From sequence record PV611058: 64,000 nt of DNA; one strand, 5' to 3'. Both the position numbers and the translations under genes were made by a program. Below are positions 13,728-62,584 of this stretch, one piece after another. This DNA is from Escherichia phage WPEC3. Under the pieces are notes generated by a model. That model was given only the letters and a program-made list of their open reading frames with translations, did not search any database and was not told where the DNA came from. Position 1 is the first letter of the stretch, and every line of letters begins with the position of its first letter.

Positions 13728-14378
13728 TTACATATTATATAATGTGAATGCTGTCACTTTACCAGTTGTTGTTAGTTCATTATAAAGATACTCCAATATT
13801 CTCGCACACTCTAAGTATATCTCGATATCATCATGAATAAGTGAGTACTGAAATAGCTGTTCTTCAGATAATTTGTATTGACTTCCTTTTAATGAATTGA
13901 GAATATCTTTCACATCATCAAGTACTGGGTAAAGTACGAAATCTTCATCATATTTTGAAGCAATAAATTCAAATCCACCACCATCAGTACTAGATATACC
14001 AATCAGTACTTTATCAATCAAGTTAATGTTTATATAACGGTTGTGATTTGGGTGAATTGAAATCTCAAACATACGAGTACTGTTACAATCAACATCAATA
14101 TACAAATATACATCGTTGAATTTATAAGTTAAGCAACCGTACTCAAGAAAATCAGAGCAAATAATTGATGAGTTTTTTCTCGTCTCTGCGTAATGCATCT
14201 TGATATTCTTTTCACGCATAAGTAATTCGAACTTTGCACTAAACTTGCCACCAGTAAGATAGTTAGTATTAGGACGTTTGTAACTTGCAACTGGTCGGTG
14301 GGATGATGTAAAGTATTTTTTTGTGAATCGTTTCTGTTTAGTGAAATATTCTTGATAGAACTTACTTCTTTTATTCAT
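13728..14378 (-). CDS. Hypothetical protein; member of the dispersed EExxFQ-motif paralogue family
   Basis: 216-aa ORF; C-terminal region ...KLSEEQLFQYSLIHDDIEIY matches a motif shared by >10 ORFs in the window. Confidence 0.5.
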   Translation of the reverse strand: MNKRSKFYQEYFTKQKRFTKKYFTSSHRPVASYKRPNTNYLTGGKFSAKFELLMREKNIKMHYAETRKNSSIICSDFLEYGCLTYKFNDVYLYIDVDCNSTRMFEISIHPNHNRYININLIDKVLIGISSTDGGGFEFIASKYDEDFVLYPVLDDVKDILNSLKGSQYKLSEEQLFQYSLIHDDIEIYLECARILEYLYNELTTTGKVTAFTLYNM

Positions 14379-14455
14379 GAGTACCTCAATTAAATCGCTG
14401 TAAAATTGTACATTATAAAATGATTAAATAAAGTATAACACAAGGAGATTTTATC

Positions 14456-15580
14456 ATGTTACCTTTCGTATTGTTATTTGATTATGGGAACGAAAAACAA
14501 GAAAGTTCTTATGATGTTAGTGTATATGGAAACAATAACTACATTTTAAATAAACAAACTGGAAACCTTTTTGCATCCGGTGCTGCGGCATTCATGGGTG
14601 ATAACACAGTTAAGTATTATATTACCCAAATAGAATCAAATGTTCATAGCTGTGAGATAGGTTTCCTATCATCATGGATAATTAAGAAGGACAAAACTGT
14701 TTTCATTTTAGGAAACAAAAGCAGTATAGGATTAACTGGTTCGACAACATCATGGTTCGAAATTACAAACTTATTTTCTGCTGTTCCTGAAATATGGGAC
14801 AACCTATTTGAATGTAAAGTTCAATTGGGATATAACTGCATACGTGTTATGACACCACTAGGATCAATCTATGCGATTGGTACAAACACTTATGGTGCAT
14901 TGGGTACTGGTACTACATCCTCATCCACTTCGTTCGTTAAAAGTGGTGCTGTGGATGCTGTACGCATGGAATCAACAGAACGTTCAGTGTTCTATCAAAA
15001 CAGTTCTGGACAATGGTTTGGATGTGGTGATAACACATATGGTATACTAGGTCTAGGAACTACCGCTAGTCGTGTAAACTCATACACCGCACCAGTATGG
15101 ACTAATGCAGAAGCTGTTAGCTTCTCTAACCGTGGGATCATATACAGCCTCAATGGTACTCTATACTCATGTGGTGACAAAGTTAATGGTCAGCTAGGGG
15201 ATGGATATACACAAAGCATAGACGCAGCCAGGAGCACACCATACACCATAGGAACCGCATTCCAAATTGGTAAGGCAATAACATCAGCTACACAAGCATC
15301 AGCCAACGTATTCATTGGTAAAGATAATAAGTTCTATGGTACTGGTAGTATTGCTGCTGGTATAAATGGTAGTACTAGTGCTGCATTAAGTAAAGTTACT
15401 GCGTTATCAGCAGCACTACCACCTGACATTACATACAATGATATTATAACATTCAATACTGGGACCGTAACTTTTATTCAAGCAAAAGGACAACTATATT
15501 ATGTTGGTAGAAGAACTTACATAGATAATAGTTCAGACGTTACCACACAGTTCAGTGTAATTGGTGGCTTAGATAATTAA
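14456..15580 (+). CDS. RCC1-like beta-propeller repeat protein (array paralogue 12, transcribed divergently from 13728-14378)
   Basis: 374 aa; N-terminus MLPFVLLFDYGN; CGDKVNGQLGDGYTQS and GTNTYGALGTGTT repeats; leader variant attaaataaagtataacacaaggag. Confidence 0.75.
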   Translation: MLPFVLLFDYGNEKQESSYDVSVYGNNNYILNKQTGNLFASGAAAFMGDNTVKYYITQIESNVHSCEIGFLSSWIIKKDKTVFILGNKSSIGLTGSTTSWFEITNLFSAVPEIWDNLFECKVQLGYNCIRVMTPLGSIYAIGTNTYGALGTGTTSSSTSFVKSGAVDAVRMESTERSVFYQNSSGQWFGCGDNTYGILGLGTTASRVNSYTAPVWTNAEAVSFSNRGIIYSLNGTLYSCGDKVNGQLGDGYTQSIDAARSTPYTIGTAFQIGKAITSATQASANVFIGKDNKFYGTGSIAAGINGSTSAALSKVTALSAALPPDITYNDIITFNTGTVTFIQAKGQLYYVGRRTYIDNSSDVTTQFSVIGGLDN

Positions 15581-15587
15581 AATTAAT

Positions 15588-15616
15588 CCAGTACTATTAT
15601 AGTACTGGATTTTTTA
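15588..15616. terminator. Bidirectional intrinsic terminator (tccagtactattatagtactgga + T6)
   Basis: Inverted repeat with T-tract between the plus array and the minus-strand block. Confidence 0.55.
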
Positions 15617-15988
15617 TTATAACATACGTTTTTTACGAATAGTATTGTGGATATTTTTTAAGTAGTTCACACCTTTACACAACCCATAAAATACACCAGC
15701 ACATACACCAAATGCAGGTATCATACATGCAAACATCGTTATCAATTCCCACATCTCCATGCCATCTTGATTCGGTCCAAGGTCAAAGATAACAACCGAA
15801 ACCAAACCTGTGATACTTAGCATATAATATGCCATGAAGATAATAAAAGAAACAATACCAACATCAGAGCGAACTGAATTTAGCATATTATATACTGGGG
15901 TTACACAGAAGTAATACAATAACCAAATCAAAGAACCTAAACTAAACACAATAATAGTAATGATCGAAAATATTTCACGATAACTCAT
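15617..15988 (-). CDS. Small integral membrane protein (family member 1 of 10)
   Basis: 123 aa, 3-4 hydrophobic segments, basic C-terminal tail (RKKRML); first of 7 tandem co-oriented paralogues. Confidence 0.55.
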   Translation of the reverse strand: MSYREIFSIITIIVFSLGSLIWLLYYFCVTPVYNMLNSVRSDVGIVSFIIFMAYYMLSITGLVSVVIFDLGPNQDGMEMWELITMFACMIPAFGVCAGVFYGLCKGVNYLKNIHNTIRKKRML

Positions 15989-15989
15989 T

Positions 15990-60512: not shown

Positions 60513-60683
60513 CTTATTTTGTCCATGACTGCTATACTAAAATATGTACCAAAATCATCACAATTGATGATGTTGTTATAGTACTCGATTGGGTTACGCA
60601 ATGATATATACAATTCAAGCTTAAAATAGTATATATCTGCTGCATTTATATTATAGTGTAGATTAAACCACTCATCAAATGTC

Positions 60684-61088
60684 TTAGGCTGCATTATATT
60701 TATCTTTATAAAAATCCATGATTTTAGTCAACAGTACTGCAATCGTATAATCTAAATCAGGATAAAGTAAATTGTACTGAAATTCTTCCTCTACACTATA
60801 GTATGTGGTGCAGTACTGATAGTCTTTATAACCAATGGAAAAATGGTTAGGATACAATGTACAACGAAAACGATATGCTTCATCTGTCATATAATCATTG
60901 TATTCAACACAGAAGTATAGTGATTTGGCATTTAATTCAATAAGCTCAACGAAACCATCAGGTAATGAATGGTTATAAATTACTGAATCTTCATTAAACC
61001 ATTCATAGTATTTTTCCAAAAAATCACTAATGGATACATCCAGACTTTGTATAGGTGGAGTTATGATAATTTGAACTTCTTTATTCAT
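60684..61088 (-). CDS. Hypothetical protein; EExxFQ-motif family member
   Basis: 134 aa; ...VEEEFQYNLLYPDLD. Confidence 0.45.
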   Translation of the reverse strand: MNKEVQIIITPPIQSLDVSISDFLEKYYEWFNEDSVIYNHSLPDGFVELIELNAKSLYFCVEYNDYMTDEAYRFRCTLYPNHFSIGYKDYQYCTTYYSVEEEFQYNLLYPDLDYTIAVLLTKIMDFYKDKYNAA

Positions 61089-61591
61089 TTCGACCCCTTA
61101 CTATATTTCACGTATGGGCTATCATACAGATCATAACTTTTTTGTGCACGTTCTTTTCGGCGTTCATACATGATTCTATCATAATCTTTGGCTTTCTGAT
61201 TTGCTTCATTATACAATTTTAAAATTAGCAAAAAAGCATCAAGGTCGGGATAGTTTGCTGGATTGATAGTACTCAGCATAAATCGTTCTTCTTCAGTTCT
61301 AGCTAAGTCAAACTCGTACTTAATAGTTTTATATCCACTCCATTTATATGTATGTGTTACTTTATTAGTAAGTACATTGTATCCAACGAAATCAGTACTA
61401 CCATCAAGTACGCGAGTAATCATAATAGATGTACCAATGACAATCTGCACAGAACTCATTTCTGAAGTTTTAAAGTAATATATATTACCACGTCGCAGAT
61501 TAACTTCTCGATCTCCAATGCGAACATGCTTAATAACTTCCACTAATGGTTCTGGTACACCACGAATCGGCATGTTAGTATTCCTCAACAA
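61085..61591 (-). CDS. Hypothetical protein; EExxF-motif family member
   Basis: 168 aa; ...RTEEERFMLSTINPANYPDLD. Confidence 0.45.
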   Translation of the reverse strand: MLRNTNMPIRGVPEPLVEVIKHVRIGDREVNLRRGNIYYFKTSEMSSVQIVIGTSIMITRVLDGSTDFVGYNVLTNKVTHTYKWSGYKTIKYEFDLARTEEERFMLSTINPANYPDLDAFLLILKLYNEANQKAKDYDRIMYERRKERAQKSYDLYDSPYVKYSKGSK

Positions 61592-62144
61592 CGGTTAGGA
61601 ATCTATCCCAACCAGTATAAGTGAAATGATCAAAGTATTGTTTTTCGCCACCTACCATATATACTTCAATTAAACCGTGGTCGAAATAATTTTTTGGTTT
61701 TTTAACTTCAGTTACAATTGCTTTATGTCTGAAACCATTATAATCAGTATATGTTACAATATCGTGAATTTTGATATTATCAGGTGTGTAAGTGTTGGCG
61801 TTATTATTGAGAACATGAAGATGATGGTCTACGATTTCTTTACTGGAAATTACCCCAAATATGTTACCAGAAAATACTTTATTACCATTACAGGTCAATG
61901 CCCAGCCATCACCAACTTCAATAGATTCAAATACATAATGTGTGCAAATTTTAGATACATCTGACGTATCCCAGTAATCACCATCAAGATTGGTGAATTT
62001 ATAAACAGTTTTGAGTTTTTCGCCATCAAATGAAAGCAATGATACTCCGATAACAACCGTTCCGTCTTTAAGAATAATATTAAATTTATTATTTGTATTA
62101 AAGTATGCTTCTGACTCAGATGAGTTGAATTTAATAAAGTTCAT
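61575..62144 (-). CDS. Hypothetical protein
   Basis: 189-aa ORF. Confidence 0.45.
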   Translation of the reverse strand: MNFIKFNSSESEAYFNTNNKFNIILKDGTVVIGVSLLSFDGEKLKTVYKFTNLDGDYWDTSDVSKICTHYVFESIEVGDGWALTCNGNKVFSGNIFGVISSKEIVDHHLHVLNNNANTYTPDNIKIHDIVTYTDYNGFRHKAIVTEVKKPKNYFDHGLIEVYMVGGEKQYFDHFTYTGWDRFLTVVEEY

Positions 62145-62191
62145 ATGTTCTCCTTAGTAAGTCATAGTATTATATCAGAGTTTCATTGCAC

Positions 62192-62584
62192 TTACCAGCA
62201 TGTTTTCATAACTTCTGTGATGTAAATCATTTTATCTTTTAGTTCATAAGGGATGCAAATTTCACCTGGGCTTAACGTTGTGTTCTTTTGAAACTCATCC
62301 TCTTCGGAATCAGCCAGGTAAAATGGGTGCGTCACAAAGTTATCATCAACTGGACGATTATGTGGTTTCATTAATGCATCATGATTGACAAAATAATAAG
62401 CATCAATATCAGGACGGAAATACAAACAATCAACCTTAATGCACGGGTGTAACCATAAGGACAAAGAATATGTTATTTGGTTACCAATTTGTCTTGGACC
62501 AGATGCAATTGTATTGATGTTATTTTTATCTTGTACCATTTCATAAATGAAATCTATCATTTCACGTAGTTCAGATTCAGTCAT
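62192..62584 (-). CDS. Hypothetical protein
   Basis: 130 aa; contains SEEDEFQKNTTL, similar to the motif in 56594-56971. Confidence 0.45.
   Translation of the reverse strand: MTESELREMIDFIYEMVQDKNNINTIASGPRQIGNQITYSLSLWLHPCIKVDCLYFRPDIDAYYFVNHDALMKPHNRPVDDNFVTHPFYLADSEEDEFQKNTTLSPGEICIPYELKDKMIYITEVMKTCW

Follow-up and report, generated by a model that had tools for sequence, protein, structure and literature searches.

What is a run of small phage genes for, when their products share little more than a short stretch of residues near the C-terminus? This question is raised by 64,000 nucleotides of DNA from Escherichia phage WPEC3 (sequence record PV611058), referred to here as the window. 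In an earlier note on this DNA, 12 open reading frames (ORFs) between 13728 and 62584 were described as a family of paralogues with a common C-terminal motif. We report that these ORFs very probably belong to a clade-specific multigene family of small (~100-230 amino acids, aa), soluble and mostly acidic proteins of RaK2-like jumbo phages, with a predicted two-layer alpha/beta fold. The source phage itself is a RaK2-like jumbo coliphage of the genus Asteriusvirus. Megablast searches with 50000-62600 and 1-13700 identified Escherichia phage Ecwhy_1 (MH791411, 354.5 kb) as the nearest complete genome, with 98% identity; the next matches were PBECO4, 121Q, slurp01 and others with ~90% identity.

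All 12 ORFs were found at the positions described, on the minus strand. The motif as it had been written, [ST]EE[ED]xF[QM]xS[LT][IV], proved too strict, as only three of the 12 match it; the shared motif itself is real. A relaxed form, [ST]EE..F[QM].[SC][LTM][IV], is present in seven ORFs, all of them among the 12, and in none of the 325 other six-frame ORFs of at least 40 aa. Such a motif might be an accident of composition, or a DNA repeat (a regulatory or recombination site) that translates into it, and the proteins are indeed acidic and encoded by AT-rich DNA, so that strings rich in E, F and Q are not rare. However, composition-preserving shuffles of the 139 gene products of the window yielded no match to the relaxed motif in 2000 rounds, compared with the seven observed, and a looser core pattern was observed nine times against a shuffle mean of 0.03. 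The motif thus lies far above chance, and since 2000 rounds gave not a single match, the doubt that the earlier note itself had raised, a motif no more frequent than the acidic, F/Q-rich composition predicts, is answered. The codons at the conserved residues vary freely (F is encoded by TTT 38 times and by TTC 26 times, Q by CAG 33 times and by CAA 30 times, and Ser by both of its codon families), third codon positions included. Because synonymous codons vary at these residues, the constraint acts on the protein and not on a DNA element. In addition, no decoy ever passed in the profile iterations described below. Artefacts at the level of composition or DNA were ruled out on these grounds, and we give them practically no credence.

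Pairwise phmmer comparisons linked only two pairs of these proteins, 52509/53087 (1.6e-11) and 50951/51364 (3.6e-7). Leave-one-out profile hidden Markov models (HMMs) recovered every one of the 12 (rank 11-14 of 139, E 1e-9 to 0.026), confirming that they form a single family. The leave-one-out profiles repeatedly picked up two further ORFs, 30281-30853 and 62192-62584, and the genome-wide profile detected exactly 14 members in the window (E <= 1.8e-6), the next ORF having an E of 0.032. The motif lies 56-175 residues from the N-terminus and starts 34-70 residues from the C-terminus, farther inside than the ~25-45 residues first given. The 14 members are as follows; E values are those of the genome-wide HMM unless marked as leave-one-out or phmmer, and the internal Met starts of 50542, 52509 and 61085 were judged from orthologues and the Ecwhy_1 annotation.

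13728-14378, minus strand: 216 aa with a basic N-terminal extension; motif LSEEQLFQYSLIHD at residues 170-183; E 1.4e-14; the Ecwhy_1 orthologue is 98% identical.
30281-30853, minus strand: 190 aa with a basic N-terminal extension, added here to the original list; motif LNEEEYFQESIVTE; E 1e-14; the Ecwhy_1 orthologue is 100% identical.
36252-36767, minus strand: 171 aa; motif STEESVFQHSLIHN; E 4e-12.
50542-50991, minus strand: 149 aa as the longest ORF, with the probable start at Met15 (~50949); motif KTEEEHFMDSTVKE; E 1.3e-8.
50951-51355, minus strand: 134 aa; degenerate motif IDEDMFFQLSTLYD; paralogue of 51364 (phmmer E 3.6e-7).
51364-51780, minus strand: 138 aa from the ATG; degenerate motif LTEDMYMQLNFVYD; a sigma-70 promoter with 11 of 12 consensus positions lies at 51860-51831.
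52509-52886, minus strand: 125 aa as the longest ORF, 119 aa from the probable start at ~52868; motif YTEESLFQYSMIND; paralogue of 53087 (phmmer E 1.6e-11).
53087-53503, minus strand: 138 aa; motif DTEEKFFQYCLVND; AlphaFold model 1.
56594-56971, minus strand: 125 aa; degenerate motif ADEADEFQKRTVYE; E 3.4e-9, leave-one-out E 0.0011.
57359-57724, minus strand: 121 aa; motif KTEEEYFQTSTVQE; AlphaFold model 2; a sigma-70 promoter with 11 of 12 consensus positions lies at 57783-57756.
59781-60284, minus strand: 167 aa with a basic C-terminal tail; motif ITDEDVHFQESLVCD; E 8.8e-15.
60684-61088, minus strand: 134 aa; motif one residue shorter, SVEEEFQYNLLYPD; E 6.5e-9, with the weakest leave-one-out value (E 0.026).
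61085-61591, minus strand: 168 aa as the longest ORF, 162 aa from the probable start at ~61573, with a basic C-terminal tail; motif RTEEERFMLSTINP; E 2.8e-17.
62192-62584, minus strand: 130 aa, added here to the original list; motif DSEEDEFQKNTTLS; E 4.6e-9.

A profile search against a whole phage, which had been suggested as a check, was carried out on the complete Ecwhy_1 genome, represented by 598 non-overlapping ORFs together with shuffled decoys. The iterated HMM converged on 67 of the 598 ORFs, or 11% of the genes, while all decoys stayed at E = 0.03 or above, and a recognisable version of the motif was aligned in all 67. The family is thus about five times larger than the at least 12 members that had been placed in the accessory region, and it reaches far outside the window. 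Twenty members lie at 11-33 kb of the Ecwhy_1 genome, ~40 at 253-282 kb, and the remainder are scattered; the array at 11-33 kb corresponds to that of the window plus its continuation past the window end.

The family is present in another genus as well. The Ecwhy_1-derived profile, applied with no further iteration to 250 kb of Klebsiella phage RaK2 (Alcyoneusvirus), picked out 40 ORFs (E < 1e-3) and no decoy, which puts the family in RaK2 at 40 members or more. Most RaK2 members read EExxFQxS[TL][VIL]. Pooling the proteins of Ecwhy_1 and RaK2 (107 in total) gave the signature [LM]-[STDN]-E-E-x-[YLF]-F-Q-x-S-[TL]-[VIL]-x-[DNE], in which F is conserved in 103/107, Q in 100/107, the two acidic positions (E/D) in 99/107 and 94/107, and S in 86/107. 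A tblastn search with one well-conserved member found 51 records; among the matches listed, these were phages of 310-386 kb infecting Escherichia, Klebsiella, Salmonella and Erwinia, with the exception of one 86-kb Klebsiella phage record. A profile search of 1.84 billion protein representatives gave 32 matches at E <= 1e-3, all of which carry the motif; ten of them were traced, to contigs of ~350 kb labelled E. coli or to metagenomic contigs. Other searches were less productive: tblastn of the HMM consensus against phages was insensitive and recovered only the best-matching paralogue per genome, a homologue search with full-length alignments returned orthologues of only a few members, and one with an alignment of the 46-residue C-terminal module returned nothing useful.

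The conservation that unites these proteins is narrowly placed. When separately built alignments of the two main arrays (24 and 39 sequences) were compared with hhalign, they matched with a probability of 94% and an E of 1.3e-7 over only 31 columns, which comprise the motif and the helix after it. With the C-terminal part removed, phmmer linked small tandem clusters only, and leave-block-out HMMs of the N-terminal parts recovered none of the 67 proteins at E < 0.01. Since the N-terminal parts are unrecognisable between members and the hhalign match is limited to the motif region, the earlier note was right to assign the shared sequence element to the C-terminal segment. The C-terminal module is the most conserved part within one orthologous group, too.

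Structure prediction, also suggested at the outset, placed the motif segment in a short helix within a common predicted fold. AlphaFold model 1 (product of 53087-53503, from an alignment of paralogues and orthologues; predicted local distance difference test score (pLDDT) 79, predicted template modelling score (pTM) 0.74) consists of a helix at residues 2-14, six strands within residues 23-91, the motif helix at 98-105 and a last helix at 115-127. Model 2 (product of 57359-57724, from an alignment of its own subfamily only; pLDDT 89.4, pTM 0.82) has a helix at 2-16, five strands, the motif helix at 88-97 and a last helix at 104-120. From different alignments, the two models thus arrive at one topology: an N-terminal helix, an antiparallel sheet of five to six strands, the motif helix and a C-terminal helix. 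The short second helix starts exactly at the motif in both, and position -5, the residue preceding E-E, is S, T, D or N in 83/107 members; these are the classical N-cap residues of helices. Because the models share their whole-protein topology, they do not support the picture of a mobile, detachable module on otherwise unrelated proteins. The models suggest a two-layer alpha/beta domain with an antiparallel meander sheet, in which the motif would be a short helix read from its N-cap onward. Outside this helix, the sequences appear to have diverged past recognition while the predicted fold was kept.

Repeated duplication and divergence of one paralogous family, as originally proposed, is borne out by tandem clusters, by the gain or loss of a member and by orthologues in a second genus. 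Ecwhy_1 and RaK2 share 26 reciprocal-best pairs in corresponding arrays, ~10 of which align over most of their length with 25-58% identity. Members of the window have such partners as well; for example, 61085-61591 pairs with RaK2 174988-175479 (32% identity, E 1e-17) and 50542-50991 with RaK2 182285-182692 (38% identity). Younger tandem duplicates within Ecwhy_1 are 26-58% identical. Even between 98%-identical phages the presence of a member can differ, since 50951-51355 is deleted in Ecwhy_1, where a 19-aa remnant is found. The region at 50-62.6 kb is variable, because its megablast coverage is only 61-81% in the other Asteriusvirus genomes. The family appears to have grown by tandem duplication, much of it before the split of Asteriusvirus and Alcyoneusvirus, with gains and losses ongoing. 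Compared with Ecwhy_1, the ratio of nonsynonymous to synonymous substitution rates (dN/dS) is 0.30 for the family (0.33 in the N-terminal and 0.21 in the C-terminal part) versus 0.16 for 82 other small genes, and the dN of the family is 3.3 times higher. The family is therefore evolving faster than neighbouring small genes, yet is clearly under purifying selection. Pervasive positive selection is ruled out by the dN/dS of 0.30.

The sequence context gives indications of when the genes are expressed and where their products act. We found 28 sigma-70 promoters that agree with the consensus at 11 or 12 of its 12 positions; all are on the minus (coding) strand and none is on the plus strand, compared with ~4 expected for both strands together from shuffling; nine of the 28 have the perfect sequence TTGACA-N16-18-TATAAT. 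Except for one at 9710-9682, all lie within the block of family genes (18926-59303, minus strand), and two are located directly upstream of members (57359-57724 and 51364-51780). This density of near-consensus promoters on the coding strand points to early transcription by the host polymerase. None of the 14 members of the window has a predicted transmembrane segment, and two of the 67 Ecwhy_1 members exceed the hydrophobicity cut-off for one. The median isoelectric point (pI) of the family is 4.75, with 49/67 members below 5.5 versus 46% of other genes of similar size; a few members have basic N- or C-terminal tails. The RaK2 virion proteins identified by mass spectrometry are reported to have all mapped to an 82-kb and a 20-kb gene cluster (PMC3622015). 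The earlier note had suggested an interaction or localisation domain; as the family arrays lie outside these two clusters, a virion-localisation signal is unlikely.

Tentatively, we favour the view that the family is a varied repertoire, made early in infection, of proteins that bind host proteins in the cytoplasm and share a single scaffold with the conserved helix as its keystone; the early timing, the binding in the cytoplasm and the variety of targets are what we infer. Host RNA polymerase would transcribe the family genes early from the near-consensus sigma-70 promoters, and the products would remain in the cytoplasm instead of being packaged in the virion. Every paralogue would then bind its own host protein stoichiometrically, as an inhibitor or a decoy, and so serve host takeover or counter-defence. 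The common scaffold would be held together by the conserved helix, and the fast-evolving sheet and loops would be the source of target specificity. Several points weigh against this proposal. A helix with a purely structural role can usually do with fewer conserved polar residues than the four seen here (E, E, Q, S), which favours a shared functional site. The dN/dS is below 1, with no sign of an arms race. Because the C-terminal module is the most conserved part even among orthologues, the variable part may be weakly constrained rather than bear specificity. Early expression is read from promoter consensus sequences, and the common fold is that of two predicted structures, both of proteins from the array in the window.

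A shared functional site leads to the main rival of the binder proposal, a family of adaptors or substrate receptors in which the invariant E-E-x-x-F-Q-x-S helix would dock on one common partner and the variable remainder would recruit differing cargo. The partner could be one of the phage's own proteins (ClpP, the ClpA-like protein, ClpS or the sigma factor encoded at 41048-42013) or else some machine of the host. Adaptor logic of this kind is known from poxvirus ankyrin/PRANC proteins. Conservation is concentrated in one short segment with four polar residues, both across the 107 paralogues and within one orthologous group; the phage ClpP matches PF00574 at 1.3e-41, ClpA-like and ClpS genes are annotated both there and in RaK2, and a sigma-70 family factor is encoded in the window. 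However, docking of the motif is a proposal from sequence conservation, and the motif is part of a confidently predicted helix with an N-cap and hydrophobic positions (F, [TL], [VIL]) as in a helix that packs against a core. Moreover, the co-occurrence with Clp genes was seen in two related genomes only. We regard an adaptor role as possible, if on the unlikely side. A more specific form, proposed by analogy, is a substrate-receptor repertoire: the invariant helix would dock every paralogue on one machine (for example the phage ClpA-like/ClpP/ClpS system or the transcription apparatus), and the ~100-residue variable parts of ~67 paralogues would capture different host proteins. This is quite improbable; if true, it would amount to programmable host-protein removal by a bacteriophage, analogous to the F-box/PRANC families of eukaryotic viruses. 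The scaffold could also be common without a common role, the motif being an inherited folding nucleus and the paralogues having drifted to unrelated or marginal functions that a 350-kb genome under little packaging pressure tolerates. The unrecognisable N-terminal two-thirds, the relaxed constraint relative to neighbouring genes (dN/dS 0.30 versus 0.16) and the dispensability of the member deleted in Ecwhy_1 fit such drift. Yet orthologues with 25-58% identity persist across genera in corresponding arrays, the dN/dS of either protein half is far below 1, and ~11% of coding capacity is retained in every relative examined, so that drift alone seems unlikely.

Another alternative reads the motif as a processing or targeting signal, either a protease cleavage site such as that of the tobacco etch virus (TEV) protease, ENLYFQ/S, or a packaging signal such as the capsid-targeting sequence of phage T4. 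The ExxYxQ core of the TEV site recurs in the many members whose motif is E-E-E-Y-F-Q-x-S, and the best PDB matches of a subfamily profile were the N-termini (residues ~5-47) of unrelated recombinant proteins. These matches are not significant (E 0.28 or worse), and we take them to be TEV-site expression tags (ENLYFQ), whose resemblance to EEEYFQxS is coincidental and could confound automated searches. Cleavage at the motif was rejected because the segment is a high-pLDDT helix and not an extended, accessible linker, because Q is followed by a variable residue, with the conserved Ser standing at +2, and because of the five annotated protease-related genes scanned two match ClpP and none matches a 3C-like protease. 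The internal proteins of T4 resemble the family in that dissimilar phage proteins encoded at a variable locus share one short conserved motif. However, the T4 sequence is N-terminal, extended and cleaved, and the proteins that carry it are packaged in the capsid, whereas the motif of the RaK2-like family forms an internal C-terminal helix in the models and the genes lie outside the clusters to which the RaK2 virion proteins were mapped. A virion-targeting signal of the T4 type was rejected as unlikely on this basis, and a processing or targeting role as a whole is highly improbable.

Database searches assigned the family to no known group of proteins. Pfam gave no relevant match at E <= 1 for any of the 14 members, PF02330 included, and searches of NCBIfam, PADLOC and PDB sequences returned nothing significant. 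The eight longest members of Ecwhy_1 and RaK2 contain no known extra domain and do not match PF02330. In PHROGs, the 14 members are spread over 22 groups, all of unknown function, and Foldseek searches against viral models found only uncharacterised proteins of RaK2, CBB, GAP32 and fHe-Yen9-03. The predicted fold resembles that of MAM33/p32/gC1qBP (PF02330) in the order of its elements (N-terminal helix, antiparallel sheet, two C-terminal helices), and both groups are strongly acidic; it differs in having five to six strands instead of seven, and the sequences do not match in Pfam. On the predicted models, MAM33/p32/gC1qBP can be regarded as a fold analogue, homology not being demonstrated. 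Polo-box domains, actin-capping protein and levivirus coat proteins likewise combine a meander sheet with helices, with weak, non-specific scores and no sequence similarity. The modelled likeness supports only the idea that the free face of the sheet could be a binding surface.

Tandem-duplicated multigene families are familiar from large DNA viruses, examples being MGF360/505 of African swine fever virus (ASFV) and the ankyrin/PRANC and BTB-kelch families of poxviruses. The RaK2-like family shows the features of such families: its genes are arranged in arrays with 26-58% identical neighbours, one member is deleted in a close relative, and the array region is covered to 61-81% in the rest of the genus. 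A further case is the zinc-ribbon expansion of Bacillus phage G, with ~35 copies, which was termed unprecedented in a comparative survey of 224 jumbo phages that used Ecwhy_1 proteins as examples (PMC7824862). In all these expansions, as in the family described here, a very large viral genome carries dozens of divergent paralogues as tandem arrays in its variable, non-structural region, copy number differs between close relatives, and otherwise divergent proteins keep a short conserved terminal segment. Unlike the ASFV, poxvirus and phage G families, the RaK2-like family has another protein fold, shares no sequence relationship with them and belongs to viruses of a bacterial host; it is also larger than that of phage G, with 67 copies and 11% of the genes. 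The RaK2 paper states in one sentence that nearly 10% of the gene products are paralogues. These are probably largely the same genes, noticed there by pairwise similarity, and the accessible passages define no family, motif, fold or cross-genus distribution. The family, motif and fold are not described in the papers on CBB and Sharanji, the survey of 224 jumbo phages or a jumbo-phage review of 2026. What is new here is the protein family with its motif and predicted fold, which were previously undescribed; viral multigene families as such are already known.

The surroundings of the family in the window have features of their own. The plus strand at 1-15580 carries RCC1-like paralogues, and beyond ~15.6 kb almost every gene is small and on the minus strand. 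The window joins both ends of the Ecwhy_1 record: 1-39 kb corresponds to Ecwhy_1 318-354.5 kb and 40-64 kb to Ecwhy_1 0.5-22.5 kb, with the junction at ~39157-40041, and an HNH-endonuclease-like gene is divided between the two ends of the linear Ecwhy_1 record. The deposited record is thus permuted relative to the window. The following neighbouring features were noted.

107-15580, plus strand: a tandem run of ~12 paralogues, each 370-440 aa long and made of RCC1-like repeats (PF25390/PF13540 matches on 12559-13695), called 'DNA condensation protein' or 'regulator of chromosome condensation' in related records; this second large paralogue array is broken by the motif-family member 13728-14378 on the opposite strand.
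18124-22063 and 54187-56258: gene blocks with no good orthologue in the 98%-identical Ecwhy_1, which are hot spots of replacement or of insertion and deletion; the second encloses the tRNA cluster.
24474-25509, minus strand: trio of paralogues of 112-122 aa, unrelated to the motif family.
26970-28481 and 29329-29712, minus strand: a 503-aa protein and a 127-aa relative, unrelated to the motif family and annotated as 'structural proteins' in Ecwhy_1.
33105-33455 and 33846-34241, minus strand: pair of paralogues of 116 and 131 aa, unrelated to the motif family.
41048-42013, minus strand: phage sigma-70 family factor inside the early region (Sigma70_r2 2.6e-9, Sigma70_r3 1.3e-11); the orthologous Ecwhy_1 locus bears no more than the annotation 'similar to RNA polymerase sigma factor' and is possibly a pseudogene.
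53520-58477, minus strand: scattered among motif-family members are six tRNA genes (Thr-tgt, Asn-gtt, Met-cat, Ser-act, Ser-gct, Ser-tga); two of the tRNA genes come after strong promoters at 56603-56575 and 55710-55682.
57794-58280, 59614-59784 and 60330-60512, minus strand: separate mini-family of five proteins of ~54-60 aa, linked to one another by phmmer (pairwise E 1e-27 to 7e-5) and with no Pfam match; their genes are interleaved with those of the motif family.

RaK2-like jumbo phages (PBECO4, 121Q, phAPEC6, RaK2, K64-1) are under development for therapy, and more than 80% of their genes are 'hypothetical'. About 11% of this gene dark matter can now be assigned to one superfamily, which has a predicted fold and can be diagnosed by a simple signature, so that one structure, one interaction screen or the deletion of one array would inform on ~67 genes per genome together. 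With its ~35 copies, the phage G expansion is about half as large (PMC7824862). As a bacterial-virus counterpart to the multigene families known from poxviruses, ASFV and giant viruses, the family can serve as a model of genome growth in very large viruses and of the purpose of their extra genes.

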